DNA of 64,000 nt, from the sequence record LC546831.1. The stretch is one strand, 5' to 3'. The DNA comes from a plasmid. The position numbers and the translations under genes were made by a program. Numbering within the stretch: the stretch's first letter is position 1; every line of letters begins with the position of its first letter. The notes beneath the pieces are model-generated. The model was not told where the DNA came from. It saw only the letters and a list, made by a program, of their open reading frames with translations, and ran no database searches. Positions 9,083 through 36,357 of this stretch are shown piece after piece.

Positions 9083-9399
9083 CGTTTTCTGATATTGAGG
9101 CCGCACTGTCCAGTACCGGGCGGCGTGCTTACGCCGGCGTCATTTTAGCTTTCCTGCTTGATGCTCACGATCGTGGTGCTGGTCTGGTCGAGAAGCACAC
9201 TGTGGTGGAGAATGTCGGGATCACCGACACCAATGTTTCGGCGGTGGCGCGGCGCCTGGAGGAACAAGGGATAATCGAGATCCTCTACTGGGATACAAAA
9301 TCCGAGAGTCCCACATGGTCCAGCCTACGGAACGGTGCTTGGTCAGCCCCCGGATATCGTCTGCTGCCAGCTGTACTGCAGTTGTATCGTCGTTGCTGA
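9079..9399 (+). CDS. Small winged-helix-like DNA-binding protein (106 aa)
   Basis: NVGITDTNVSAVARRLEEQGII resembles a wHTH. 4-nt overlap with the upstream ORF. Confidence 0.4.
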   Translation: MTFSDIEAALSSTGRRAYAGVILAFLLDAHDRGAGLVEKHTVVENVGITDTNVSAVARRLEEQGIIEILYWDTKSESPTWSSLRNGAWSAPGYRLLPAVLQLYRRC

Positions 9400-9407
9400 A
9401 TGACAAG

Positions 9408-9423
9408 GTTTCGCATGCGAAAC
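9408..9423. promoter_or_regulatory. Operator-like palindrome copy 7 (perfect)
   Basis: Direct read. Confidence 0.65.
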
Positions 9424-9457
9424 TCACCTGAGGACACAGATACGTAAAGGAACCCGT

Positions 9458-10786
9458 ATGAAACTGGTAACGAAGAAATCACCCAGAGGTCGACTGTTCG
9501 ATGAGTTATCGCCTGAACAGGCGACGGCGGTAGGCAACGTTTGTGGCAAAGGACGCGTTACTTCGCTGGTTGAAAAACAGTTGGCTGAAGAGGTGCTGAG
9601 AAGCATGCGTGATAATGATCTTTGGCTGTCTTGCGGTTGCCGCACGACTGCAGAAGATCGGCCACTTAACACCGTCTGTAACCGCGACGGATCTTTGTTC
9701 CTGGTGAATTTCAGCGGAGAGCACAGCTCGGATTGTCCGCTGTATCGTTCAAAGCGGGGTGATGATGGCACAGGGCAGGGCGGCGGGCGCCGAACAGCCG
9801 GCGCCGTGCGCATTGATTTTCGCTCTTTCTTGCCGCGAGACGATAATGGGGCTCGTATCGCTGGGCCGGCGAAGACAAACAGTCATGGCAAAGACAAAAC
9901 AAGTCGGCGCCGTATACCCGCGTTGGCACGCCTGCTGCTGACCTTGATCGAGGCCGCTGGGCTTAATCGCATCGAACCGGTTTACCCTCAGCCAGGACAA
10001 ACCAAAACGCAGGCGCTCAATGCGGTGAAGTTGGTTACCGAGATGGAGCACTTTGCCCAGGGTCGTCCTCTGAGCGAGATTGTATTCTTCGACCCCTGGC
10101 TGAAACAAGAACGGCTCGATGCGCGCATGCGTGAACTTGAAAACGAGGGTAAAGCCTGGCCTGCAGGGAGAGCACGAACTTTCTACCAGATCCTGTTCTC
10201 TGAGCAGGTGACACAAGATGAGGTCGTTTTCAAAAGTAAGTTCGGTGAGACAATATTCCGGCCCGAAAAGCGAGTGAGCATCAACGGCGAGGTTGATGGT
10301 CATCGGGAGAAATACTGGGTGATCCTGATGTACCGGCGCAATGATGCTGGTACGGTCGTTTGCCGCGATGCTTATGCGCATGCGCTCTTTGATTACGCCT
10401 GCCCGGTTCCGGTCGACAGTAACCTTGAACGTGAAACCATTAACTCCATCATTACTGGGGGGAAGTGGCTGCAGAGTTCAGGCTATGAGTTATCCCTTAA
10501 CAAACCGCTGTTCGATATCACTGTGGACCTTGATGGCGAGGAGCGTTTTGTTTTGCCTGACTTCCTTTTGACTGTCAAACACCCTGGGCGGGTGCGAACG
10601 TCGGAGCTTGTTATCGAGACGATGGGGTATACTGATGATGACTACGTCGAACGCAAAGCGAATCAGCATAAGGGTATGAGGGAATTGGGGTTGTTGCTGA
10701 AAGATCCCCCTTATTGGCCGGCACCGGCCGATAAGCGTGATGCATTTGCACGGTATTTGTATGGGCGAATTTCGCACTTAAAATAG
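9458..10786 (+). CDS. Conserved hypothetical protein (442 aa)
   Basis: Long ORF with an RBS, behind palindrome copy 7. Confidence 0.5.
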   Translation: MKLVTKKSPRGRLFDELSPEQATAVGNVCGKGRVTSLVEKQLAEEVLRSMRDNDLWLSCGCRTTAEDRPLNTVCNRDGSLFLVNFSGEHSSDCPLYRSKRGDDGTGQGGGRRTAGAVRIDFRSFLPRDDNGARIAGPAKTNSHGKDKTSRRRIPALARLLLTLIEAAGLNRIEPVYPQPGQTKTQALNAVKLVTEMEHFAQGRPLSEIVFFDPWLKQERLDARMRELENEGKAWPAGRARTFYQILFSEQVTQDEVVFKSKFGETIFRPEKRVSINGEVDGHREKYWVILMYRRNDAGTVVCRDAYAHALFDYACPVPVDSNLERETINSIITGGKWLQSSGYELSLNKPLFDITVDLDGEERFVLPDFLLTVKHPGRVRTSELVIETMGYTDDDYVERKANQHKGMRELGLLLKDPPYWPAPADKRDAFARYLYGRISHLK

Positions 10787-10813
10787 AAATTAATATTTAA
10801 ATAAGGATATCGA

Positions 10814-11245
10814 ATGATGAAAAAGCTATCGGAAAAAATGCTTGATTTTGCATTGGCACGGCCATACATGTGTTTAACTCTCAGCATAGTGTTTTTATTT
10901 TTGTGTGCTGCCAAAGGGGTAGAGTATATGGTTAATGGAAGACATTTAACACCATTGCTAATATCCATTTTGGCATGTGCAATTGGTGGGCTATTTTTCG
11001 TTTACTTTTATATGCGCCATACTTTAGCAATGAGTAGAACTTATAACTTTTTGTTAAATAATAGGAATTCTATTGCGGAGGGAGTTGCGGTGGACCACCT
11101 AAGGGCATTGGCAAAGAGTCATGCTGTTGAGAAAGAATTCGATGATTATTTTTCGTCGAAGAAACACCCTCAAAAAATTGAAGTTTTCGTGAATAAGATA
11201 AGCGAATTCGCCATGAAAAAACTCAAAGATAATTCACGTTCTTGA
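10814..11245 (+). CDS. Membrane protein on a low-GC insert (143 aa)
   Basis: Two hydrophobic helices. Local GC clearly lower than the flanks. Confidence 0.45.
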   Translation: MMKKLSEKMLDFALARPYMCLTLSIVFLFLCAAKGVEYMVNGRHLTPLLISILACAIGGLFFVYFYMRHTLAMSRTYNFLLNNRNSIAEGVAVDHLRALAKSHAVEKEFDDYFSSKKHPQKIEVFVNKISEFAMKKLKDNSRS

Positions 11246-19237: not shown

Positions 19238-19681
19238 GCTGGCGCTTCCTTCGGTGGCAGGCCGCAAGCGTCCAGCCATCAAGCCCTACTCGACTAATCG
19301 CCCGCCGGCGGGCGCCAAGTCTCGCCGAACTCCTTCGGGTTTCGGGCCGGCCGGCTAGGGTCTGAAAGCCAGGGTCAACAACCTGCGCTTGCAGCCGGCT
19401 ATGCCGGCGCCACTTTCACTGTTCGCCGCTGTGCCGGCGATCGCTAAGGGCGCCCCGGCGTTTCGCCGGGTCGGGTATGTTCCTGCTCATCTCACCGTTG
19501 GTTATCTCTCATCGGCCTCACGCGGCCGCTTTTGTAGCACCGTCGCCCGGTTGCCCGCAAGGGAGGATAAATCGCCGCAAGCGGCGCCCTTGCTGTCCCC
19601 CGTTCGCCGTCGCTACTTCCGCTTTTTCGCCGCGCAAGGTTCCGACGAGAGATAGATAACCCACCCAGCAAGGAGAACAGC
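19238..19681 (+). repeat. Structured leading-region repeat copy 2 (candidate Frpo/ssi-type ssDNA promoter)
   Basis: About 445 bp, near-identical to copies 3 and 4. Dense inverted repeats, e.g. GGTTATCTCTCATCGG pairing with CCGACGAGAGATAGATAACC. Ends at the ATG of a + strand ORF. Confidence 0.55.
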
Positions 19682-20128
19682 ATGAACACACAGAACGTCA
19701 ACATCAACGTCAACACCGCCACGAAGGAACACTCTGGGAGATATGAAACGGCGGGATTGTGCGAACCAGAGGCCCCGGAGCCTTGGGAAAAGCCCGGCGT
19801 GCAATATCCTGCTGCCGTGCGCGCGTTGGAAATGGAGTTTATTTACTTAGACGACCTGAATGAACTGTATGCGCAAAGCAGCACGTCACCCGACGAGCTG
19901 GAGCAGGCTCTCTATGTGATTTTCGGCCGAATGACAGAGCTTGTCCAAAGCTGCGGGGCTGATTATAAGCAGCCTGACAAGCCGAGGGTTTCATACGAGA
20001 TGGCCAAATACTGGATCAGGGGGCAACGGGTAGCGCAGCAATGTTTCGGGGAAATCGGTCAGCGCGCCTGGGAGCATGCACGTTACAGACTGGCGTTCGA
20101 GTTGGCGGTGGAGTATTCGTACAACTGA
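19682..20128 (+). CDS. Hypothetical protein (148 aa). N-terminus MNTQNVNINVNTATKEHSGRY is encoded within the repeat
   Basis: ORF with RBS AAGGAG. Shares DKPRV.Y...W...C.E.G motif with the 23757 ORF. Confidence 0.5.
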   Translation: MNTQNVNINVNTATKEHSGRYETAGLCEPEAPEPWEKPGVQYPAAVRALEMEFIYLDDLNELYAQSSTSPDELEQALYVIFGRMTELVQSCGADYKQPDKPRVSYEMAKYWIRGQRVAQQCFGEIGQRAWEHARYRLAFELAVEYSYN

Positions 20129-23252: not shown

Positions 23253-23299
23253 TCTGCCGATCGCCGGTGCCTATCAAAATACCTTTCTTAAACTTCCTA

Positions 23300-23756
23300 T
23301 GAGCTTCCTCCGGTGGCCGGCCGCAAGCGTCCAGCCATCGAGCCCTACTCGACTAGCCGCCCGCGCGCGGGCGCCAAGTCTCACCGAACCCGCGTAGCGG
23401 TTTCGGGCCTGCCGGCTAAGGTCTGAAAGCCAACATCAACAACACCAAGGTCAACAGCATGCGCTTGCTGCCGGCGATGCCGGCGCCGCTTTAACTGTTC
23501 GTCGCCTGGCGACGAACGTTGAGGACGCCCCGGCGTTTCGCCGTGTCGGGTGTGTTCCTGCTCATCTCACCGGTGGTTATCTCTCATCGGCCCTTACGCG
23601 GCCGCTTTTGTAGCACCGTCGCCCGCGTGCCCGCAAGGGTGAAATGCACGCCGCAAGCGGCGCCCTTGCGTTCCCCCGTTCGCCGTCGCTACGTCAGCTT
23701 TTCGCCGCGCAAGGTTCCGACGAGAGATAAATCAACCACCGAAGAGGGATACCAGC
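23300..23756 (+). repeat. Structured leading-region repeat copy 3 (candidate ssDNA promoter)
   Basis: Aligns with copies 2 and 4 along its whole length. Confidence 0.55.
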
Positions 23757-24179
23757 ATGAACACACAAAACGTCAACGTCAAAACCGCCACGAAGGAACG
23801 CTCTGAAAGATATGGGTGGACGGAAGCCTATGGTTGGGGCTTGTCGCCTGCTGAACGCATTTCTGAGCAACAGGGCTATCTGAAAGAGCTGCGCCATTTT
23901 AACGATCAGTGGAAACCGGAAAGAGCGCAGCGGCTGATGGAACTGCTGATGACCATCGCCGATAACGTGCTGGACTCGGTGACGAACTGGAAAGACGTGG
24001 GCGCTTTTGGTGATAAACCCCGCGTTCCTTACATGATCGTTCGTTGCTGGCTGGACGCGATGGCGTTGGCGCCAGAGATGTGCGGCGAAATGGGCAGCAA
24101 CGCCGTGGCGTATGTGCTCGAAAAATTGGAGGGGAAATTTGAGTTTGAATGCGCGATGACCCGGATGGATCACCCATAA
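23757..24179 (+). CDS. Hypothetical protein (140 aa), N-terminus MNTQNVNVKTATKERSERY. Paralog of the 19682 ORF
   Basis: Shared N-terminus and DKPRVPY motif. Confidence 0.5.
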   Translation: MNTQNVNVKTATKERSERYGWTEAYGWGLSPAERISEQQGYLKELRHFNDQWKPERAQRLMELLMTIADNVLDSVTNWKDVGAFGDKPRVPYMIVRCWLDAMALAPEMCGEMGSNAVAYVLEKLEGKFEFECAMTRMDHP

Positions 24180-26580: not shown

Positions 26581-27028
26581 CTGGCGCTTCCTTCGGTGGC
26601 CGGTCGCAAGCGCCCAGCCATCAAGCCCTACTCGACTAGCCGCCCGCGCGCGGTCGCCAAGTCTCGCCGAACCCCTTCGGGTTTCGGGCCAGCCGGCTAG
26701 GGTCTGAAAGCCAACATCAAGGTCAACCCCCTACGCTTGCAGCCGGCGATGCCGGCGCCGCTTTAACTGTTCGTTGCCTGGCAACGAACGCTAAGGACGC
26801 CCCGGCTTGTCGCCGTGTCGGGTGCGTACCTGCTCATATTGCCGGTGGCTATCTCTCATCGGCCCTTACGCGGCCGCTTTTGTAGCACCGTCGCCCGGTT
26901 GCCCGCAAGGGTGAAATGCACGCCGCAAGCGGCGCCCTTGCTGTCCCCCGTTCGCCGTCGCTACGTCAGCTTTTTGCCGCGCAAGGTTCCGACGAGAGAT
27001 AGATAACCCACCCAGGAAGGAGAACAGC
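26581..27028 (+). repeat. Structured leading-region repeat copy 4 (candidate ssDNA promoter)
   Basis: Near-identical to copies 2 and 3. Confidence 0.55.
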
Positions 27029-27313
27029 ATGAACACACGAAACGTCAAAGTCCAAACCGCCACGAAGGAACACTCTGAAAGATACGGGGAAAAGATCATC
27101 GCTGATTTGGATTCGTTGCTGCAGAAAACAAGCCGGGCGCTGTTTAAGTTTCAGAAAAATGCGAACAGAAGTGCACTCGGCATTCAAACAGCTGCGCTGA
27201 GCCAGGAACTTGAAATATTGGTGAAGGGAGTACCGGCCATCCCGGATATTCAGGAAAGAGTGAATAAGGTGGCCGAACTGCTGCACATTATGGAAGATTT
27301 TTCGGCCCAATAA
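27029..27313 (+). CDS. Hypothetical protein (94 aa), N-terminus MNTRNVKVQTATKEHSERY
   Basis: N-terminus encoded within the repeat. Rest unrelated to the other two. Confidence 0.5.
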   Translation: MNTRNVKVQTATKEHSERYGEKIIADLDSLLQKTSRALFKFQKNANRSALGIQTAALSQELEILVKGVPAIPDIQERVNKVAELLHIMEDFSAQ

Positions 27314-27397: not shown

Positions 27398-28225
27398 ATG
27401 CGTCTGACTTCCCGTTTCGGCCGTTATAACGCCATCCGTAAAGACCGCCCGTTAACCAACGACGAATTAATGAACGTGGTGCCGAGCGTGTTTTCTGAAG
27501 ATAAACACGATTCGCGCAGTGACCGTTATACCTACATCCCCACCATTACGCTGCTGGATAAATTACGTGAGGAAGGTTTTCAGCCGTTTTATGCCTGCCA
27601 GACACGCGTTCGGGATGAAAGCAAACGCGGCCATACCAAACACATGCTGCGGCTGCGCCGGGAAAATATGATTGCCTCCGGCAATAAGGAAGTGCCCGAA
27701 ATCGTATTGTTGAACAGCCACGACGGGAGCAGCAGTTACCAAATGATCCCCGGCATGTTCCGCTATGTCTGCGCCAACGGCATGGTATTTGGTCAATCGT
27801 TCGGTGATGTCAGAGTGCCGCATAAAGGCGACGTAGTCGGGCAGGTGATTGAGGGGGCTTATGAAGTGCTAGGTATATTTGACCGCGTCGATAATGATCT
27901 CGATACCATGAAATGCATTTCACTGACCGAGCGCGACCAGGAATTGTTTGCGCGGGCGGCGTTAAGTTATCGCTACGAGTATGAAGATAAATCCCCAATC
28001 AAGCCGTCCCAGGTTTTGCGTCCGCGTCGGCGTGAAGATTACGGCAATGATTTATGGACGACATTCCAGCGCGTTCAGGAAAACATGATTAAAGGCGGAT
28101 TACCCGGTAAAAGCGCTACCGGGAAAAATACCCGGACTCGGGCGGTCAACGGTATCGATGGCGATATAAAACTGAACCGTGCGTTATGGTTGATTGCGGA
28201 TGAATTCAAAAACCGAATGAAATAA
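27398..28225 (+). CDS. DUF932-family protein (F leading-region orf273-like)
   Basis: MRLTSRFGRYNAIRKDRPLTNDELMNVVPSVFSEDKHDSRSDRYTYIPT...FQPFYACQTRVRD...HTKHMLRLRR matches the DUF932 consensus as I recall it. Confidence 0.7.
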   Translation: MRLTSRFGRYNAIRKDRPLTNDELMNVVPSVFSEDKHDSRSDRYTYIPTITLLDKLREEGFQPFYACQTRVRDESKRGHTKHMLRLRRENMIASGNKEVPEIVLLNSHDGSSSYQMIPGMFRYVCANGMVFGQSFGDVRVPHKGDVVGQVIEGAYEVLGIFDRVDNDLDTMKCISLTERDQELFARAALSYRYEYEDKSPIKPSQVLRPRRREDYGNDLWTTFQRVQENMIKGGLPGKSATGKNTRTRAVNGIDGDIKLNRALWLIADEFKNRMK

Positions 28226-28326
28226 CAGAGTGCCCCGGTAATGACGCCCATCAATACCGGGGCCGAACACTGCTACAGAACGTACAGTTAACACAGCGCG
28301 GACAGTATGAAATAACGAGGTGAAAG

Positions 28327-28623
28327 ATGCAAACGGAAAATTTACGGGTATGCAGTACGGCGCATTTTACATCGGAAGATAACGAGCTGTTAGCGACAAT
28401 GGCAGGGCAGGCGGCTTTTAGTTCCTGGGTGGTTAACATCCAGTACGGTTATATTCTGGTGCTGACGGATTATCGCTGGCGGCTGCGGGTATTAAAGTCA
28501 CAAGGAGCGTCAAAGGCGCTGAGGTGGTTTTTAATTCATCAGATAAAATATCACCGTATAGGCTACATCCATTTTGATTGTGATGCGCCCATTCTCCCCG
28601 GTCACGAAGTTTTTGAATGGTAG
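28327..28623 (+). CDS. Hypothetical protein (98 aa)
   Basis: ORF with RBS GAGGTGAAAG. Confidence 0.4.
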   Translation: MQTENLRVCSTAHFTSEDNELLATMAGQAAFSSWVVNIQYGYILVLTDYRWRLRVLKSQGASKALRWFLIHQIKYHRIGYIHFDCDAPILPGHEVFEW

Positions 28624-28908
28624 CGCGCTGATAAGAGCCGTCCCCATCGAGGGGGCGTCTCTTATTCTCCCCGCCCGCCCAGCGGGAAATAAATTTCCCG
28701 CTCCCGCTGCCCCAAAGGGGCGCCCAGGTTAGCACCAAAAAACGGTAACGTTTTTTGGTGGTGTCCGTTAACTCTGCGATCCGCTTACCCACATCTACAC
28801 AATCGACGTTATTTCACCTTCACCCGGTGAAATAACCGCTCCCGTTCGTTTCCCATTAAGGTGATGGGAAACTTCACTGGCTTTGTCTTATGTGCATATG
28901 TGGATAAA

Positions 28909-29379
28909 CTACGGGTTCTGGACGAGGAGGGGTTGCTGCTTGCTGGCTTTTATCGCCCGGTAGGTCTTTTCGATTTTGCTTGCATACTTATAACGTCGTT
29001 GCGCCTGCTTAGGCGAATCTTTAAATCCTGCATTATAAGCACCTACTGCCTGCCAGGTCGCTCCCCACTTCTTAAAGGCAATCGCGAGATAATAAGCACC
29101 GGTGTAGATGTTCATGCACGGATCTTGCTTCAGGTGCCGTTCTGAAACCCCTATCGATGAGAGCGAGTTAAAGTGCTGGGAGTCAATTTGCATTAACCCC
29201 ACGCCGTACCCTGTTGTAGGATTTGGACCGATAGCCACGGGATTAAACCGTGACTCGTTCCATGAAATAGCACGTAGCAGATCCGGGTCGATGTGATAAT
29301 CACGACCCGCCATGTCAAAACAATCAGCCATAGCGGCCGTTGAACTGAATAGCATTAACACTGCGATGAGGTTCTTCAT
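28909..29379 (-). CDS. Soluble lytic transglycosylase (F gene X/orf169-like, IagB/PilT family) with a signal peptide
   Basis: ESRFNP...GLMQIDSQH...AYNAG SLT-domain motifs. Adjacent to oriT as in F. Confidence 0.8.
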
Positions 29380-29399
29380 GTTATCCTTAAAATCCCTAG

Positions 29400-29800
29400 C
29401 CCTGGTGAAAATCTAGCCTTTTCGGGATCTCGAGTCAACAAATTCGCGCTCTTTGGGTTAACAGCATCACACCCCACGCAAAAATTCTTTTTGCAGATAA
29501 TTCCATTATAAACAATGTGATAGCGTTATTTTTAAAGATATGGTTTGAGTTAATGAACTTTAAGTGAATCGCTTGTGATTTACTGGTGATTCGTATAAAA
29601 ATCATATTTGGATTCGCATGTGATTCATTCTATAAAATACAGTAAGTTATATGATAAATTGTGAAACAATTGCAGAAAGTGATTCGTCTATGAATTGTGT
29701 AATCACTTGTTAATATGGCTAAAAACTGATATATGAATCGTCAGTGAATCATTATTTGCGATTCGAGAATTCAAAATAACTTATCGTGATGGAGTGAAAA
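29400..29800. other. oriT: oriT region. F-type nic motif on the minus strand at about 29462..29484, with the nick between complements of 29468/29469. Upstream of it an array of GANTC-containing repeats (GTGATTCG / CGAATCAC) that look like TraM/TraY binding sites
   Basis: Minus strand reads TTTTTGCGTGGGGTGT|GATGCTG. F reads TTTGCGTGGGGTGT|GGTGCTTT. AT-rich. Sits between gene X and traM. Confidence 0.65.
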
Positions 29801-29809
29801 GTAACCTAA

Positions 29810-30190
29810 ATGGCTAAAGTTCAAATTTATCTTTCAGATGAAACTTATAAGGACATAGAGCAACAGCTTATCACACATCGAGGAGAAAAGGGGCGTCAGG
29901 AGTCATTCTCTTCTTTTTCATCAATGTTGTTAGAACTTGGATTGAGAGTTTATAAAGCTCAACGAGAATCCGTTGCAGACCCATTTGATCAAACGTCATT
30001 TAATAAAACTCTATTAGAGAATGTGTTGCTCACCAGTTTTACTATGTCAAAACTTCTGGGTATTAACTCTCACAATACTGAAATACAAGGGTTGTCACAC
30101 TTTGTGATGAGAGACATGGTTAATGATATTAAAACGAAGACTTCTGATGAAATGTTAAAAATATTTACAGTGAAAGACGAATTTGAGTGA
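29810..30190 (+). CDS. traM: TraM (relaxosome accessory protein)
   Basis: MAKVQIYLSDETYKDIEQQL...SFSSMLLELGLRVYKAQ aligns with F TraM MAKVNLYISNDAYEKINAII...SATASMLLELGLRVHEAQ. Confidence 0.85.
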   Translation: MAKVQIYLSDETYKDIEQQLITHRGEKGRQESFSSFSSMLLELGLRVYKAQRESVADPFDQTSFNKTLLENVLLTSFTMSKLLGINSHNTEIQGLSHFVMRDMVNDIKTKTSDEMLKIFTVKDEFE

Positions 30191-30221
30191 TAACTAGGGG
30201 GGCGTCGCCCGACGCCTTCCC

Positions 30222-31967
30222 TTATAAAATCTCGTTTATTTTACTATTAATTTCTGATGTTCGTACCGGTTTAATAAGAACTGGCACACCATCAATTTCC
30301 TTTTCATTTGAGTAGGCAGTAATAAATATAAATGGTGTGTGCTTATTAGGTCCTTCCTCTCTTCTTATATATTTGAATAATTGGTCTCCGTTCATCATTG
30401 GCATTTGTAAATCCGATAAAATAACATCATAAGGCTTTCGCATTAACTTCTCTATTGCTCGATTTACTGATGATATTGACTCTCCACGATACCCACAGCT
30501 GTTTAGAGTGGATGTCATCACGGAACAAGTTAACTCATTATCATCAATAAACAATATATTTATACCTTTATGCATCGCTTCAATTGTGTTATCACTTAGA
30601 ACAATATCGCTAACATCAACATTTGATATTTCGACTGGGAGCTGAACTGTAAAGGTAGTCCCTATGCCTAGCTCACTGCTCAAGTGGATATTACCGTTCA
30701 TAGCTCGTATAACACCCTCAACTATAGCCAACCCCATGCCTGAACCAGGTATCCGAGATGTAGGGTTATCTATCCGTATGAATGGTTGGAAAATAGTTTT
30801 AAATTTCTCTTTAGGGATACCTATGCCAGTGTCAGATATCTGTATCGTAAGTGTGCTATTCTTATGTGATTTTGTTATTTGGCATGTAACCGTAATTAAC
30901 CCTGCTTCCGTATACTTGAATGCATTAGTTAGCAAGTTTTCAACTACTTGTGATATTCTTGCAGAGTCACTTTTTATAAATACGTTGGGGCACTCTACCA
31001 AACTTGCTTTTAGATTATCTGATTTGTATTTCGAGTTGCAATCTGAAACTATGTTGCTTATAAGTGCTGCTATATTAAAATCGGATTTGTTTATTTTTAC
31101 TGCGCCATTATCGATCTGAGCATACTCTGACAGATCACTCATTTGTCTCTCAATTTGAGTGGCAGCGTTTTCTAGTCTACGTATTACTAGTTCATCGACT
31201 TTCTTATCTTTCGTGTTCATTATTAATTCAATTGAACCCACGATAGCTTGTAATGATGTTCTTAGTTCATGGCCAAGTTTCCCAAGGAATGCATTTTTAT
31301 TATTGAATGATTTTTTCTCAGAATCTAACTGTTTATTAATAAGAATGATTTGCCTAAAAGATAGAGATACCATAATAAGCAATAAGAGATATAAGGTGAT
31401 AATCGGTATCTTTATTGAACTCCATTTGTTCAGGTAGTCCTCATGAAGGATAGTTCTTTGCCTAACTTCGGCATGATCTGATATAGCGATCAGGTTTTTG
31501 TTCTCAATACTTATATCTTCAATATCTTTCAGGATGATCTCGTAATTCGTATTTTGTGAATTTAGCTCTTGGTCAATTTCATTCAATATGCTGTTGATTT
31601 TCGAAATTGACTCCGCATACCCTTGCTCCTCGTATAGGTAACGAGTTGACATGCTCTTGTTTAGTAACACATTGGACCCAGAAAATAGTAAGTCCAGGTC
31701 TTGTTGTAAACCCTGCTTATCATCAATCTTTAGACGCAATTGCCTTTCTGTCCTGGCACCGAAAGCTGCAAGCCGAATTGAAAATTTTGCAATCGCCCAT
31801 GCGTAGTTTTCCTGTGGGCCAGCAGAGTTAATATTGTGCATTGATGAGAAATAGCGGTCATACATCCAGAAAAATGCCGAACTCAGTACGACCAAAACAA
31901 CAATGTATTGTGTTATGATACGTTTCAGTTTCATTTTGGATCTACCGTTATATGTTCTACTTGCCAT
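30222..31967 (-). CDS. Hybrid sensor histidine kinase (2 TM N-terminal sensor, HisKA, HATPase_c, C-terminal receiver)
   Basis: H-box LGKLGHELRTSLQAI. G-boxes ISDTGIGIP and GSGMGLAIV. Receiver ILFIDDNE...ILSDLQMPMMNG. Confidence 0.8.
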   Translation of the reverse strand: MASRTYNGRSKMKLKRIITQYIVVLVVLSSAFFWMYDRYFSSMHNINSAGPQENYAWAIAKFSIRLAAFGARTERQLRLKIDDKQGLQQDLDLLFSGSNVLLNKSMSTRYLYEEQGYAESISKINSILNEIDQELNSQNTNYEIILKDIEDISIENKNLIAISDHAEVRQRTILHEDYLNKWSSIKIPIITLYLLLLIMVSLSFRQIILINKQLDSEKKSFNNKNAFLGKLGHELRTSLQAIVGSIELIMNTKDKKVDELVIRRLENAATQIERQMSDLSEYAQIDNGAVKINKSDFNIAALISNIVSDCNSKYKSDNLKASLVECPNVFIKSDSARISQVVENLLTNAFKYTEAGLITVTCQITKSHKNSTLTIQISDTGIGIPKEKFKTIFQPFIRIDNPTSRIPGSGMGLAIVEGVIRAMNGNIHLSSELGIGTTFTVQLPVEISNVDVSDIVLSDNTIEAMHKGINILFIDDNELTCSVMTSTLNSCGYRGESISSVNRAIEKLMRKPYDVILSDLQMPMMNGDQLFKYIRREEGPNKHTPFIFITAYSNEKEIDGVPVLIKPVRTSEINSKINEIL

Positions 31968-32431
31968 ACAAATCGCGAGTAAAAAATAGGTTTGTTAAGC
32001 TCTTCATAATGTTCATCTAAAGGATATATTACGAAGTAGGGACCAAAGTCGCGCACTTTTAACGGGGTATCATTTCTTTTGCTTGCAAGGATAATGTTGT
32101 ACTTATCAACATCACTCATCGGAATGTCTACCCAATAGTCGTTTAAGGCATGGACTCGTACTATTTTTCCCGTTATGCCAACTTCTGTGAGTATGTCTTT
32201 GAAGCTTGTCCCGGTAAATTTTTCTTTCGGTGTCCAGGCAGTTGACGTCGTTATTGATGTCTTTGGTAGGGCATCCATCATAGCTTTCGTTAAAGTGACC
32301 GTGGTTTGTGTACTCCCATCAGTTACTCTCAGGTCACCTATCGGACGATCCTCTGCTTTCGTAATTATTGAGAAAAGACCAATAAACATAATTGCAGCAT
32401 ATTTTTTAAGCGTTTTCATAATAGCTCTCAA
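31931..32431 (-). CDS. Secreted/periplasmic protein of unknown function (signal peptide)
   Basis: N-terminal KKYAAIMFIGLFSIITKA signal. Operonic, overlaps neighbours. Confidence 0.5.
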   Translation of the reverse strand: MRAIMKTLKKYAAIMFIGLFSIITKAEDRPIGDLRVTDGSTQTTVTLTKAMMDALPKTSITTSTAWTPKEKFTGTSFKDILTEVGITGKIVRVHALNDYWVDIPMSDVDKYNIILASKRNDTPLKVRDFGPYFVIYPLDEHYEELNKPIFYSRFVWQVEHITVDPK

Positions 32432-33395
32432 ATTTCTTTTCTATGTATTGAATTAGTGACGGATTGTTGCTTTCATGCATCCCATTGACTTTTTCACTGC
32501 CAATATAAACGGAGGTGCAGTTATTATAGTATTTGCTACGTAACTCTGGCTGTATTGATGTGAAAATGCAAAATGTAGGAATGTTGTAGCCAGCAGCTAC
32601 ATGTAGAGCAGATGAATCGCAAGTGTATAGGTATGATGAGTTAGCAATCATTTCTATGTACTGTCTTGTACTTTTACACATGCTTGTTACATTAAAGTAT
32701 TTAGAATGATTCGATATTCCAAACCCGTATACTGGTAATCTAAATTTTTCATAAAGCATCGTGACAATTTTGTCATGATGCTTCTCAGGGATCGATCTGA
32801 GCTTAGTGCTGGCATACGGGCAGAATAATATATATTTGCTTTTTTTATTCTGAGGGATGGCTCGCTTTAACCAGGTGTTTCTCTTCCAGTCTTCATCTAT
32901 TGAGTTATAGTCTAACCCTATGGTTTTCATGAAAAAATCATGCATTTCTAGTTCATTGAAGTCCTTCCAATACACCTGATTACCAATATCTACATTGGTA
33001 TCATTTGGAGATATGTCCTGCAATGAAAATGGCATGTATTCTATTTTGCTTATGATTTCCTTAGCTTCATAGTATATGTCGTTTACATATTTTGCGCAGT
33101 TTTTTGGCCGAATTACCCGGATTCTAATCTGGTCATTAATTTTTTTTATTGCTTCTAATGCACTGATGCCTATGATTGAATCACCAAGCGTAACACCCAT
33201 TCCGTTTATTATCGTTAAGTCACGCGTCAATCTGTAGTCTATCGTGAAGTTTCTCAATGCACTGTTTAGTACCAAGCTACTGTTCAGCTTGGTCAGTTCA
33301 CGTTCAATGGGACTGTATATTAAATCGAATGCAGAGACTATATCTGTTGAATTCAATAATAAACTGCCATTGTTTTGTGAAATGTCAATGTTCAT
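32406..33395 (-). CDS. Glycosyltransferase family 9-like protein (heptosyltransferase fold)
   Basis: N-terminal GMGVTLGDSIIGISALEAIKK and C-terminal YTCDSSALHVAAGYNIPTFCIF resemble the GT9 blocks (ALGDV... / DSGLMHLAAALG.P.VALFG). Confidence 0.5.
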   Translation of the reverse strand: MNIDISQNNGSLLLNSTDIVSAFDLIYSPIERELTKLNSSLVLNSALRNFTIDYRLTRDLTIINGMGVTLGDSIIGISALEAIKKINDQIRIRVIRPKNCAKYVNDIYYEAKEIISKIEYMPFSLQDISPNDTNVDIGNQVYWKDFNELEMHDFFMKTIGLDYNSIDEDWKRNTWLKRAIPQNKKSKYILFCPYASTKLRSIPEKHHDKIVTMLYEKFRLPVYGFGISNHSKYFNVTSMCKSTRQYIEMIANSSYLYTCDSSALHVAAGYNIPTFCIFTSIQPELRSKYYNNCTSVYIGSEKVNGMHESNNPSLIQYIEKKFESYYENA

Positions 33396-34249
33396 GGTCT
33401 ACTTGAAAAGTATTTGTCTACTAGAGCTTGAATCGAGTTAATCCTTAGCGGTTTACTATATGGTCCAAGGACATCGAAATCATTAACGGCAGATGCAATT
33501 TCCCTATCTATATTTTCACCCACTTGGCCAGTGAGTATGATGATCATTGCATTTGGCTTTTCTGATTGTCGGATTTTTTGAACTAGATCGTAGACTGAAT
33601 GGTCTCTAACGACCCAGTCTAAAATGTAAGCGTCATATGGTTTTGTTACTGCAGATTTAAGCAAGCTATCAATATCGACGAAGATATCAATATGATACTC
33701 TTTTCCCTGCATTATCCCTCTAATGCTTTCAACTATCGCAACATCATCATCAAGGATAGCTATCCTGGGATGCTTTCTTGTGAGCACTGTAGAGTCGATG
33801 GATATCATGCTAACCCCACGCTTTGACTCCATGTAGAGCTGGTTCTCTTGAATTTCCTCTGTCTTAAAAACGTGCCATATGTCATTTATTTTTACTGCGG
33901 AATAGGTTCTGGGTTCGTCCTGCCCGACACCCAAAAGATATGCTTCGCACTCTATCTCTGCACTGTTGATGTCCAGAACGGCACTAACCTTATCAGCAAA
34001 GCCTGACTCGATAATCATGTAGAACTGACTCATCGTGAGACCTACTGAAACCACAACGCTTTGGAGTTGGGAGACTTCCCACTGAGCTTGCCCCTTTAGT
34101 TTTTTATGGGCTTGAGATGGGGATATTGATAGCACGCTTCTTACGTGGTCTACGTGCTTATGCTTTGCGATCCCCTGCATGTTAAGCATCAGCGAAACAA
34201 CATCCCCTATATTTGAACCACTTATGTATTTCTCGTTGGCTTCGCTCAT
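33392..34249 (-). CDS. Response-regulator-like protein with a C-terminal receiver domain and an N-terminal HTH-like region (atypical domain order)
   Basis: Receiver IAILDDD...AYILDWVVRD...IIILTGQ in residues 170-285. N-terminal VRSVLSISPSQAHKKLKG is HTH-like. Confidence 0.55.
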   Translation of the reverse strand: MSEANEKYISGSNIGDVVSLMLNMQGIAKHKHVDHVRSVLSISPSQAHKKLKGQAQWEVSQLQSVVVSVGLTMSQFYMIIESGFADKVSAVLDINSAEIECEAYLLGVGQDEPRTYSAVKINDIWHVFKTEEIQENQLYMESKRGVSMISIDSTVLTRKHPRIAILDDDVAIVESIRGIMQGKEYHIDIFVDIDSLLKSAVTKPYDAYILDWVVRDHSVYDLVQKIRQSEKPNAMIIILTGQVGENIDREIASAVNDFDVLGPYSKPLRINSIQALVDKYFSSRP

Positions 34250-34557
34250 TTTATGCTCTCTGAATTACATTCTTGTTCTTTTGGCAAGTCTAATAAAAGC
34301 GAAGAAAAAGGCAATAAAAACAAAAACTTTAGTGCAGTTTGCCTTCCAAAAAATGTCGTATTTGGATTGAAAATATATAAAGATTTCCTTAAACAACATA
34401 AAATATCTTTACATGTTGCTTCTCGATAGTGCATGATTGCGTCTAACGATAATCTTCTCTGCCATGATTGCGTCTGGGGAATCGATTCTTCGCTGGTGTT
34501 TGTAGGTTAGGTTGCTTTTGTTTGAACCAACAATATTAGCCATTAGGTTGATTTTTA

Positions 34558-34953
34558 ATGAAAAATCAAAAATCAAAATCAGAACATGAATATCCGGCGA
34601 TCCGCATAACCATAGATATATCGTCGGACACGAACAGAAAGCTCTCCTTATCCGCCAAACGGTCAGGTAGAGCTAAACGTCAGGAAGCGGGGATACGCCT
34701 ATCCGACCACTTGGATAGCTTCATTGATATCTCGACTGACGCAATACAGCTTTCTAAGCTTCAACTGGAACCTGACGCTGAATATCCAGCGATTAGTATA
34801 ACTGTCGATATATCGTCTGAAACAAACAGAAAACTCTCTTTATCGGCCAAGCGATGGGGTAGAGCGAAACGTCAAGAGGCGGTAATACGGTTAGATCATC
34901 ATTTAGATATCATTACAGATATTGCTACGGAGGGTAAAAGATTTCTGAGGTAA
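34558..34953 (+). CDS. traY: TraY (tandem ribbon-helix-helix oriT-binding protein)
   Basis: 131 aa with an internal tandem repeat EYPAIRITIDISSDTNRKLSLSAKRSGRAKRQEAGIRL / EYPAISITVDISSETNRKLSLSAKRWGRAKRQEAVIRL. Sits just upstream of traA. Confidence 0.75.
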   Translation: MKNQKSKSEHEYPAIRITIDISSDTNRKLSLSAKRSGRAKRQEAGIRLSDHLDSFIDISTDAIQLSKLQLEPDAEYPAISITVDISSETNRKLSLSAKRWGRAKRQEAVIRLDHHLDIITDIATEGKRFLR

Positions 34954-35052
34954 CAACGCCAACACCAGGGGAACTACTAATCATAATTTATTAACTTCGA
35001 TGCAATTGAAAGGAGGTGAATACACAAGAAAGTTCGTGAATATCAGTTCTAT

Positions 35053-35466
35053 ATGCAAAACACACGTTTTCTGAATGTTAATTTCAAAAGGATATATGCA
35101 ATGAATGCTTCATTAAGCGCTCAGGGTTCTGCTATTGCCCAACGCCAGGGAATCTCACTAAGCAAGATGTTCTCACGTCAACGAGTGGTGAATTTCCTCA
35201 AACTGGTTCTGCCTTTTGCTGTGCTGACCGCGTTGTTCCCGCAACTGGCCCTGGCAGCCGGGGCTTCCGGTGACTTGCTTAAAACGGGTGACGATACCGT
35301 TAAGCAGACAGCCGGCAGCGGCTCCACCATGTACAAGTGGATCATCCTCGGTGAGGTCGTGACCGGGCTGTGCCTCTATGTCTTCACGCACAGCTTCAAG
35401 TTCCTGTTCGGCTTCATCATCCTGTCCATCATCGGCAACGTCGGCATGAAGGTCGCCGGCTACTGA
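35053..35466 (+). CDS. traA: F-type propilin TraA
   Basis: C-terminal mature region AGASGDLLKTGDDTVKQT...KWIILGEVVTGLCLYVFTHSFKFLFGFIILSIIGNVGMKVAGY matches F pilin. Confidence 0.85.
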   Translation: MQNTRFLNVNFKRIYAMNASLSAQGSAIAQRQGISLSKMFSRQRVVNFLKLVLPFAVLTALFPQLALAAGASGDLLKTGDDTVKQTAGSGSTMYKWIILGEVVTGLCLYVFTHSFKFLFGFIILSIIGNVGMKVAGY

Positions 35467-35475
35467 GGAGGCATT

Positions 35476-35781
35476 ATGTCGGGAGACGATATCAATCTTT
35501 ACCGTTTCCCGAAAACACTGAACAACCAGGGCCGCTGGTTTGGTTTAACCCCTGACGAATTAATTCCCATTGTGCTTTCTGCCTGCTGGTTCTTTTGGCA
35601 GGGCAAACAGATTGCGGGAATTATCGTGGCGGCTCTGGTTTATCTGGCAATACGCAAGGTTAAAAAAGGGAAGGGCAGCGTCTGGTTGCGCGATTTGGCG
35701 TACTGGTATCTGCCCACCTTTATGTTGCGTGACCTTTATAAAAAAGTGCCGCCTTCGTGTTTTCGGCAATGGATTAAATAG
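35476..35781 (+). CDS. traL: TraL
   Basis: YRFPKTLNNQGRWFGLTPDELIP...WLRDLAYWYLPTFMLRDLYKKVPPSCFRQWIK aligns with F TraL. Confidence 0.9.
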   Translation: MSGDDINLYRFPKTLNNQGRWFGLTPDELIPIVLSACWFFWQGKQIAGIIVAALVYLAIRKVKKGKGSVWLRDLAYWYLPTFMLRDLYKKVPPSCFRQWIK

Positions 35782-35790
35782 GGTGAGGGA

Positions 35791-36357
35791 ATGAAACATT
35801 CAGCCAGACTTAATTCCAACAGGATTATCGCCCTGAGTTTCGTGTTACTCGGTGTGCTGTTATTCCTTAGCATTGTTTCTAACGTCATTCTCTCCGTAAC
35901 CAATTACAAACTGCAGGGTGATCGTCAGGTCGTCGCCGTACCCATGTTGTTCAAGGCGCCGTTTGCGATTTCAGAGAACAGTATGGACGCCGGCTATCTC
36001 GAGCAGATGGCGCTGAGCTTTGTCTCACTTCGTCTCAACGTCTCCCCTGAGACGGTTGATGCCTCGCATCAATTTCTGCTCACGATGGTCAAACCCGCCG
36101 CACAGAAGGAACTCAAGCTGACGATGGCCAAGGAGGCCAACCAAATCAAAAAGAATGACGTTAATGCGGCGTTCTTTAAAACCGGTGTTCGCGTCTATCC
36201 CGCAGAAGGCCGGGTCGATATCCGCGGTGAACTCAAAACCTGGTTCGGCGACAGCAAGCCGGACTCGGTGCTCAAGCATTACGCCCTCTATATCGACAGA
36301 ACTGACGGCGTGACCTGGCTGGCCAAATTTGTCGAGGTATCCGATGAAAACAAATAA
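35791..36357 (+). CDS. traE: TraE
   Basis: 188 aa. PMLFKAPFAISENSMDAGYLEQMALSF...VNAAFFKTGVRVYP...LKTWFGDSKP aligns with F TraE. Confidence 0.9.
   Translation: MKHSARLNSNRIIALSFVLLGVLLFLSIVSNVILSVTNYKLQGDRQVVAVPMLFKAPFAISENSMDAGYLEQMALSFVSLRLNVSPETVDASHQFLLTMVKPAAQKELKLTMAKEANQIKKNDVNAAFFKTGVRVYPAEGRVDIRGELKTWFGDSKPDSVLKHYALYIDRTDGVTWLAKFVEVSDENK

Follow-up and report, generated by a model that had tools for sequence, protein, structure and literature searches.

We have analysed a stretch of 64,000 nucleotides (sequence record LC546831.1, in the following called the window) that makes up most of an F-like conjugative plasmid of Serratia marcescens. In this plasmid the traJ slot, between traM and traY, is filled exactly by four genes on the opposite strand, which encode a response regulator, a glycosyltransferase-like enzyme, a secreted protein of the OxMoco type and a hybrid histidine kinase. 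We refer to these four genes as the cassette. We think it rather probable that the cassette is a two-component system of the Air type, known from Chromobacterium violaceum, that has been recruited as a dedicated positive regulator of transfer, that is, for a role like that of TraJ. Judging from the sequences compared here, it is very probably a portable switch that ties the spread of plasmids to a signal from outside.

Several lines of evidence lead us to this reading. The cassette occupies the traJ slot, and neither TraJ nor FinP nor FinO could be detected. The same head-to-head layout recurs with unrelated transfer systems, and the regulators of mobile cassettes form a clade of their own with an F-type subclade. 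The phospho-acceptor and catalytic residues are conserved, and so is the intergenic region, which holds a unique pair of repeats. Finally, the architecture matches that of AirM, AirS and AirR, and the regulator of plasmid pSMC2 had independently been listed in a table published in 2016. A preliminary description of this DNA had proposed that the expression of the transfer (tra) genes is tied to a plasmid-borne phosphorelay and not to a classical TraJ; the lack of a detectable TraJ, FinP or FinO and the recurrence of the cassette head-to-head with transfer operons support this proposal strongly, without proving it.

The cassette in the traJ slot

The positions of all features are collected in Table 1. 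The gene starts in the cassette are those given by the Prokaryotic Genome Annotation Pipeline (PGAP) for plasmid pSMBC31-93K, which is 99.3% identical. With these starts, consecutive genes overlap by 4, 14 and 4 nucleotides (nt), which fits translational coupling within a single operon. The region 29400-35500 is found in full length and with 99.2-99.3% identity in three Serratia plasmids (pSMBC31-93K, CP027301 and LT575491), of which CP027301 is collinear with the whole window; in a fourth one, CP118724, the identity is 98.9% over the part that is present at the ends of the record.

The coordinates and the gene order of the preliminary description, with traM and traY present and four overlapping minus-strand genes between them, were confirmed and find support in Pfam. 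There is indeed no plus-strand gene between traM and traY: the open reading frames (ORFs) on that strand within 30222-34557 are short, antisense and unannotated in the four near-identical Serratia plasmids. The types that had been assigned to the proteins, namely a regulator with a receiver and a helix-turn-helix (HTH) part, a member of glycosyltransferase family 9 (GT9), a secreted protein and a hybrid kinase, were upheld by Pfam and by structure searches, and the secreted protein can now be described more precisely as a cysteine-free protein of the OxMoco fold that resembles AirM.

When TraJ of F was compared with the window by tblastn, the best E-value was 3, i.e. no homologue was found. 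Plasmid CP027301, which is collinear with the window, has neither TraJ nor FinO in its PGAP annotation, and when positions 28000-36000 were scanned with Rfam (E <= 1), neither FinP nor any other known RNA came up. TraJ of F, R1, R100 and pSLT, which activates the traY promoter (PY) under the control of FinOP, likewise lies in an AT-rich traM-traY slot next to PY, and the cassette would share with it the role of a master regulator of tra. On the other hand, the cassette regulator has no sequence similarity to TraJ, its gene is on the opposite strand, and its domains follow in the order HTH, beta domain and receiver, whereas TraJ has its HTH at the C-terminus and a PAS-like domain at the N-terminus (PMC5102898). 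The input differs as well, being a dedicated kinase in the cassette and control by an antisense RNA in TraJ. In all the respects that were tested, that is, homology, domain order, strand and control by FinP and FinO, the cassette does not qualify as TraJ.

The four proteins

The BetR match of the regulator scores 57 bits, against a cut-off of 21.6. In an alignment with 20 homologues, the residues D167, D168, D211, T240 and K266 are invariant. The AlphaFold2 model of the regulator (predicted local distance difference test, pLDDT, 83) has helices at residues 14-82, strands at 84-150 and the receiver at 162-282. According to this model, the N-terminus would be a five-helix HTH of the Cro/C1 type, followed by a beta domain and, at the C-terminal end, by the receiver. 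A sequence search for solved structures of the BetR domain matched receiver domains only; receiver domains also dominate the Foldseek results for the full-length model, in which the N-terminus could be classed no further than as Cro/C1-like HTH plus beta domain.

In the kinase, Pfam finds HisKA (3e-9), HATPase_c (1e-27) and a C-terminal receiver (1e-16), and its translation shows the H-box GHELRTSL and the receiver pattern DD...D...T...K. Two hydrophobic segments, at residues 3-25 and 171-201, enclose a stretch of about 145 amino acids that is predicted to be periplasmic. No histidine phosphotransfer (HPt) domain was found by Pfam or NCBIfam in any of the four cassette proteins; the search did not extend to HPt genes elsewhere on the plasmid. 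For the kinase and the regulator, NCBIfam returned generic matches only, all of them far below the cut-offs, and for the OxMoco-like protein it returned none.

The OxMoco-like protein, whose gene lies directly upstream of the kinase gene and overlaps it by 4 nt, starts with a signal-peptide-like N-terminus (MKTLKKYAAIMFIGLFSIITKA). Its match to Oxidored_molyb (1.2e-5) is partial and covers the profile positions 58-135 of 169. In enzymes of the sulfite oxidase / MsrP family, a conserved cysteine ligates the molybdenum. The mature OxMoco-like protein lacks any cysteine in 8 of 8 mobile cassettes and therefore cannot ligate molybdenum in the manner of this family. The database name "molybdopterin-dependent oxidoreductase" is thus probably misleading, and the protein is more plausibly a ligand-binding or partner domain than an oxidoreductase. 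In the following we call it the putative co-sensor.

The GT9-like enzyme is predicted to be cytoplasmic and to have a GT-B fold (AlphaFold2 model, pLDDT 93). Its best Foldseek matches are WaaF (1psw), WaaC (2h1h) and TibC (4rap), with E-values from 2e-9 to 1e-6. The residues D72, D260 and H265 are invariant, and the C-terminal motif TCDSSALHIAAG, a putative nucleotide-sugar motif of the type D-S-G-x-M-H-x-A-A, can be aligned to TNDSGLMHVAAA of WaaF; note that D72 was equated with D13 of WaaC by reading the G-D motif, and not by a residue-level superposition. From these conserved residues, the enzyme looks catalytically competent. With WaaC, WaaF and TibC it shares the predicted GT-B fold and probably also the GDS aspartate and the D-S-x-x-x-H-x-A-A motif. 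It differs from them in that it is 10-15% identical, with a TM-score of about 0.5 (a value that may reflect domain opening), in having an extra N-terminal extension of about 55 residues, and in the location of its gene, which is found in a signalling operon and not in a lipopolysaccharide (LPS) core or adhesin locus.

In Serratia fonticola, Serratia aquatilis, several Serratia isolates and Burkholderia multivorans, the gene that directly precedes the OxMoco gene is likewise a homologue of the GT9-like gene. Since it occurs in such chromosomal Air-like loci, the gene is no oddity of the LC546831.1 plasmid but an old, optional member of Air-type operons. A glycosyltransferase in a regulatory operon had at first been called unexplained, and its presence is now explained in part by this ancestry, while its role in signalling is something that we only infer. 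A stand-alone homologue in Paraburkholderia has no sensor genes adjoining it.

Table 1. Features of the window and of related loci. Positions without a locus number refer to the window; candidate elements are marked as such.
Feature	Position	Strand	Remarks
traM (relaxosome protein)	29810-30190	+	Pfam Tra_M 4.5e-32; NCBIfam TraM equivalog 118.8 bits (cut-off 104); left border of the regulatory slot
GC-rich hairpin, 10-bp stem	30197-30220	.	lies where traM and the kinase gene converge, between their stop codons; candidate bidirectional terminator
Hybrid histidine kinase gene	30222-31934 (upstream ATG at 31967)	-	570 amino acids (581 from the upstream ATG); HisKA-HATPase_c-Response_reg
OxMoco-like protein gene	31931-32419 (alternative start 32431)	-	162-166 amino acids; Oxidored_molyb 25 bits (cut-off 24)
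GT9-like glycosyltransferase gene	32406-33395	-	329 amino acids; Glyco_transf_9 23 bits (cut-off 22)
Response regulator gene	33392-34249	-	285 amino acids; BetR (PF08667, E-value 3e-15) and Response_reg
Candidate cassette promoter	34287-34314	-	TTGCCT, 16 nt, TAGACT; 8/12 of the consensus, under the scan threshold
Candidate traY promoter PY	34408-34437	+	TTTACA, 18 nt, CATGAT; match of the promoter scan
Two exact 13-nt direct repeats, CATGATTGCGTCT	34432-34444, 34463-34475	+	31 nt (three helical turns) apart; candidate regulator-binding sites
traY	34558-34953	+	Pfam TraY 8.7e-30 with two domains (double ribbon-helix-helix); opens the tra operon and diverges from the regulator gene
Small ORF facing the regulator	L007 5060-5576		
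Small ORF facing the regulator	L008 5143-5370		
Small ORF facing the regulator	L012 8114-8491		
Small ORF facing the regulator	L075 5250-5561		
Slot of pSERAS01	L002 3056-7001		two XRE-type HTH proteins, queuosine precursor transporter and QueC
Slot of B3R3	L003 6981-10955		CI/LexA-like HTH-Peptidase_S24 protein divergent from traY, VUT (queuosine precursor) transporter and metallophosphoesterase

Recurrence with different transfer systems

In a tblastn search of PLSDB, 480 plasmid records had a match to the regulator and 433 had one to the glycosyltransferase, the homologues being 36-56% identical. Among the hosts, Klebsiella (263), Escherichia (57), Salmonella (35), Serratia (25 and 18) and Shigella (15) predominate. 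Most of the 480 regulator records are typed as conjugative (385) and a further 57 as mobilizable.

Seventeen mobile-clade loci have flanks that could be read, and in 16 of them the gene opposite the regulator gene is the first of a transfer operon. The layout recurs in the loci that we inspected: the regulator leads the four-gene operon and lies about 300-670 bp from the first transfer gene, and this is seen in at least five transfer-system contexts. That the same insert might be present in other F-like plasmids, as considered in the preliminary description, turned out to be the case: the traM-traY slot is occupied by the cassette in Klebsiella pMB9509_2, S. marcescens pSMC2, a plasmid of S. 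proteamaculans and three metagenome or isolate contigs, with 47-86% identity of the regulator. VirB-type contexts are found in S. Typhi pK91, Buttiauxella pBTX_57 and contigs of Kluyvera and Pseudocitrobacter, and there are hybrid contexts in which a TraY gene is followed by a lytic transglycosylase and VirB genes. An I-type context with a MOBP relaxase is provided by a Klebsiella plasmid of 87,095 bp, and integrative and conjugative elements (ICEs) with a TraI_2 relaxase and an integrase carry the cassette in the chromosomes of S. plymuthica and S. ureilytica. A widespread but unrelated cargo cassette had been named beforehand as the finding that would speak against a regulatory role. Widespread the cassette is; it is tied to transfer operons, however, and is not unrelated cargo.

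In a neighbour-joining tree, the regulators of mobile-type cassettes form one clade apart from the chromosomal Air-like regulators, and the F-type regulators are a subclade of it. The mobile clade includes the regulator of Klebsiella sp. BIGb0407, where the cassette lies in a chromosomal island between kdsB and smtA/mukF and adjoins a YhgA-like transposase; this is the sole mobile-clade copy that we saw off a transfer operon. Here the regulator, the co-sensor and the kinase are intact and the glycosyltransferase gene is fragmented.

More distant regulators of the BetR-receiver type in Variovorax and Roseateles likewise face VirB operons. In the Roseateles and Variovorax loci L058 and L059 (about 9200-10850), the regulator is 28% identical and stands head-to-head with the genes for a lytic transglycosylase, VirB4 and VirB5, with no OxMoco or GT9 gene adjacent. 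Regulators of the BetR-receiver kind may have been paired with type IV secretion before the enterobacterial cassette arose.

Outside the F-type contexts, the first gene opposite the regulator is in every case a small ORF of 71-125 amino acids that has no Pfam match (Table 1). These small proteins could be accessory DNA-binding proteins like TraY. As for TraY itself, it is a tandem double ribbon-helix-helix protein of 129-135 amino acids in the window and in loci L005 and L016, and a single-domain protein of 67-76 amino acids in the cassette-bearing F-type relatives L004, L006, L014 and L015.

Base composition and control region

The cassette has a guanine-cytosine (GC) content of 0.376; in the tra genes that lie downstream the value is 0.569, and over the window as a whole it is 0.542. 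The early statement that the GC content of the block is markedly below that of the backbone was thus correct, but the low-GC island (about 29400-35000) is wider than the four cassette genes and also takes in traM (0.35), the spacer between the origin of transfer (oriT) and traM (0.33) and traY (0.43). We find a GC content of 0.33-0.38 for the cassette in 9 of 9 contexts measured, which include loci L004-L008, L012, L074 and L075 and positions 30222-34249 of the window, as against 0.43-0.57 for the neighbouring transfer genes. This AT-richness persists despite a divergence of the cassette proteins to 36-56% identity. Since the low GC content is kept in every host element, it is no sign of a recent import into the LC546831.1 plasmid. 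The AT-richness of the cassette looks selected, for example for silencing by H-NS.

The regulator gene and traY are separated by 308 bp (34250-34557, GC content 0.33). Among five F-type relatives, whose regulators are 56-86% identical, the mean column identity of this region is 79%. The two back-to-back promoters that had been placed here in the preliminary description are matched by two conserved promoter-like elements of opposite orientation in a genuine intergenic region, both of which we treat as candidates. On the side of the cassette, the block TGTTTTTATTGCC...ATTAGAC at 34287-34322, about 40-70 nt upstream of the start codon of the regulator, is invariant in the five F-type relatives; pSMC2 again has TTTTTATTG and ATTAGA, and L004 and L008 contain similar strings. 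Its part at 34287-34314 would be the promoter of the cassette, if we may judge by sequence. On the side of traY, all five relatives retain CATnAT, and the -35 element of the candidate PY (on the other strand, ATGTAAAG) is invariant.

The two CATGATTGCGTCT repeats are the only exact copies in the 64 kb, and near matches occur at chance level. According to our estimate, about 7e-4 exact pairs of 13-mers would be expected by chance in 308 bp. The segment that bears the repeats is conserved in relatives, and repeats of this type are limited to the close F-type relatives. A loose string, TGTTTTTAyTG, recurs upstream of the regulator gene in some contexts only.

Relation to known systems

The three protein types that the cassette has in common with the Air system of C. 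violaceum are those of AirM, AirS and AirR. In C. violaceum, the signal-peptide OxMoco protein AirM is genetically required for the function of AirS, and AirR consists of BetR and a receiver (Lozano et al. 2020, PMC7240160). The name of the Chromobacterium system stands for "antibiotic-induced response"; its cue is translation inhibitors and its output quorum sensing and violacein, with AirR acting positively on cviR (PMC7240160). In both systems the OxMoco gene is directly upstream of the gene for a membrane kinase of the HisKA-HATPase-receiver type. Unlike the Air genes, the cassette has a GT9-like gene between the regulator and the co-sensor; moreover, it is mobile and AT-rich and faces a transfer operon, and the Air cue may not apply to it. 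The cassette regulator leads a single operon, whereas the regulator genes of chromosomal Serratia, Burkholderia and Rhizobium loci are convergent with the OxMoco-kinase pair.

We surveyed chromosomal Air-like loci with one genome per species (the Serratia contigs are L022-L051 and L055). Such loci are present across almost all of the sampled Serratia species and in Burkholderia, Variovorax and Rhizobium. The chromosomal paralogues in Serratia have 27-35% identity to the plasmid-borne regulator, about 40% to the kinase and about 47% to the co-sensor. Because the Serratia hosts own such a paralogue, cross-talk with the incoming plasmid system is possible.

Fernandez-Lopez et al. (2016) list, as "Group F" of their Table S2, the homologues of pSMC2 SM39_RS24685 as putative alternative tra regulators, pKPN-b0b included. 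The HTH protein of the pSERAS01 slot is their "Group G", and TraJV, EntFR and SphTR are other regulators in the catalogue. The pSMC2 regulator (locus L005) is 49% identical to that of LC546831.1. The 2016 work gives accession lists only: its main text makes no mention of kinases, response regulators or two-component systems, and the four-gene cassette and its occurrence beyond F-like plasmids are not described there. We also considered whether the regulator is identical with TraJV of the IncFV plasmids and rejected this, as Table S2 puts TraJV and the pSMC2 regulator in different groups. A comparison of pilins indicates that the cassette-bearing Klebsiella plasmid is not pED208-like. On a role in conjugation of BetR/Air-type systems or of two-component systems encoded by plasmids, open-access papers and bioRxiv preprints yielded only the Chromobacterium paper and the 2016 table. 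Neither did we find in these sources a description of the cassette or of its spread over transfer types, though an earlier account may exist.

A comparison in outline can be made with VirA, VirG and ChvE of the tumour-inducing (Ti) plasmids of Agrobacterium, where a kinase with a C-terminal receiver, a periplasmic partner and a regulator respond to an external cue by switching on an operon for type IV secretion. As in the cassette, a plasmid-borne kinase is combined with a periplasmic helper and with a regulator of type IV secretion. The families are unrelated, however: VirG is of the OmpR type with a C-terminal winged helix, and ChvE is a chromosomally encoded sugar-binding protein. There is no glycosyltransferase, and the system governs the transfer of T-DNA (transferred DNA), not the conjugation of the plasmid.

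Exchange of the regulatory module

In sister Serratia plasmids, the TraA and TraL proteins are identical and the traM-regulator-traY module is different. For example, the same TraA protein accession is found in pSERAS01. The nick region of oriT is near-identical in the sisters, the divergence sets in about 120 nt into it, and similarity returns at traA. Since conservation breaks past the oriT nick and resumes at traA, we conclude that traM, the regulator genes and traY are exchanged as a unit, which in the window spans 29380-35100.

The queuosine-related genes and the metallophosphoesterase in the slots of pSERAS01 and B3R3 (Table 1) are odd cargo for a region that controls transfer. Kinship of the cassette regulator with the HTH protein of the B3R3 slot was considered and rejected: BLASTP found none, and a profile comparison gave a probability of 1.8% with a weak match at the level of the HTH. 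In the spacer between oriT and traM (29500-29800) we see many short repeats of the type GATTCG / TGAATC, which are absent from the spacers of the sister plasmids. Presumably, these are allele-specific binding sites of TraM that move with the swapped module.

Mechanism and alternative explanations

If the cassette does act as a positive transfer regulator, its cysteine-free co-sensor and the periplasmic domain of the kinase (about 145 residues) would sense a cue from the envelope or from outside, as the relation of AirM to AirS suggests. The kinase would autophosphorylate the histidine of its H-box, and the phosphoryl group would be passed on to D211 of the regulator, either directly or via the kinase receiver and a phosphotransfer protein of the host. 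The HTH of the regulator would then bind to the 308-bp region, where the CATGATTGCGTCT repeats are the best candidate sites, and would switch the operon that starts with traY and traA and probably also its own operon. Given the uniform AT-richness of the cassette and the promoter region, it is likely that both are silenced by H-NS, and the regulator may serve as a counter-silencer or activator in the way of TraJ. The weakest step of this scheme concerns the GT9-like enzyme. Most likely its target would be some part of the sensor; it might, for example, heptosylate the co-sensor or the kinase before export, as TibC does with TibA. Alternatively, it might make or modify the cue.

To our knowledge, which cues switch on conjugation is a long-standing open question, and beyond the classical F/R1 group the regulators of most plasmids are not known. 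The cassette would provide a defined, plasmid-encoded pathway from a sensor to a promoter which is present in hundreds of plasmids (263 Klebsiella records) and in at least four types of transfer systems, and which is directly testable. If our reading is true, the spread of these plasmids is conditional on a specific signal that could be identified or blocked, and regulatory modules move between conjugation systems as units. Moreover, the poorly understood Air-type systems of Enterobacterales would for the first time be given a biological output, and a glycosyltransferase within a signalling operon would be given a role. A more far-reaching version of the same idea, namely that the cassette is a self-contained and exchangeable conjugation switch which at least four unrelated transfer classes have captured, and that heptosylation of the co-sensor or of the periplasmic domain of the kinase (or another coupling to the state of ADP-heptose or the envelope) is integral to the signalling by which the spread of resistance plasmids is timed, seems improbable to us as a whole.

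A number of points weigh against recruitment as a positive regulator. The function is deduced from gene neighbourhood, that is, by comparative genomics. The hybrid kinase has no HPt domain to go with it in the cassette, which leaves the route of phosphotransfer unclear. The intergenic regions between the regulator and the transfer genes could not be shown to have a DNA motif in common across the F, VirB, I-type and ICE contexts. One copy of the cassette, the partly decayed chromosomal one of Klebsiella sp. BIGb0407 (L021 7800-13115), is not beside transfer genes, and AT-rich regulatory slots are recombination hot spots that also host apparent cargo, such as the queuosine genes, in the sister plasmids. 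The CATGATTGCGTCT repeats could bind TraY or a host factor instead of the regulator; besides, they overlap the putative -10 element and the early transcribed region, which suits a repressor better than an activator. With the repeats lying over and downstream of the putative -10 element, the cassette may be a brake, i.e. a counterpart of FinOP or CI in which the regulator represses PY via the repeats and the signal either relieves or imposes this repression. This would agree with the Cro/C1-like five-helix HTH and beta domain at the N-terminus of the regulator and with the CI/LexA-like HTH-Peptidase_S24 protein that B3R3 has in the same position and orientation, and no other fertility-inhibition system (FinO, FinP) was detected. 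However, PY was assigned by a consensus match only, so that the true start may be downstream of the repeats, and in Chromobacterium AirR acts positively on its target. Furthermore, the PY promoters of F-like plasmids generally need an activator or counter-silencer (TraJ, H-NS). All in all, we hold a brake to be rather unlikely.

The sister slots with their queuosine salvage genes and metallophosphoesterase raise the question of whether the cassette, too, could be cargo that is unrelated to transfer (serving, for example, envelope stress sensing or surface modification) and that has gathered in a permissive, AT-rich and recombination-prone slot. Nearly all Serratia species have chromosomal Air-like systems, the functions in Chromobacterium are not related to transfer, and the copy without transfer neighbours fits this explanation as well. 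It is difficult to reconcile with the orientation and the spacing of about 300-670 bp, which recur in at least five transfer-system contexts, with the single clade of mobile cassettes that subdivides by transfer type, and with the fact that no other candidate for a tra activator was found in the plasmid; we consider it quite improbable. Still less probable, in our view, is that the glycosyltransferase is the main output, heptosylating the LPS core or a protein associated with the surface or the pilus and thereby altering mating-pair formation, exclusion or the susceptibility to phages or immunity, with an effect on tra that is secondary or absent. The GT9 fold with its conserved catalytic motifs, a structural likeness that extends to the protein heptosyltransferase TibC, and the translational coupling of the gene within the operon would be in line with such an output. 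Yet the gene is absent from most chromosomal Air-like loci and hence appears to be accessory and not the core output, the regulator has a DNA-binding domain and faces the transfer operon, and BIGb0407 keeps the other three genes intact with a fragmented glycosyltransferase gene. We therefore prefer recruitment of the cassette as a positive, TraJ-like regulator of transfer, with the degree of confidence given at the outset.

Further observations

The hairpin between traM and the kinase gene (Table 1) has no clear run of T, and a terminator scan gave no call there. The 81 nt at 30170-30250 that hold its 10-bp stem fold with -25.3 kcal/mol (z = -3.3 compared with shuffled sequences).

A repeat of about 500 bp occurs three times in the leading region of the plasmid, at 19239-19745, 23298-23816 and 26581-27088, with copies that are roughly 84-91% identical. 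Each copy ends with a conserved ribosome-binding site and the start of an ORF (ATGAACACAC...). These repeats may be single-strand promoters or leader elements.

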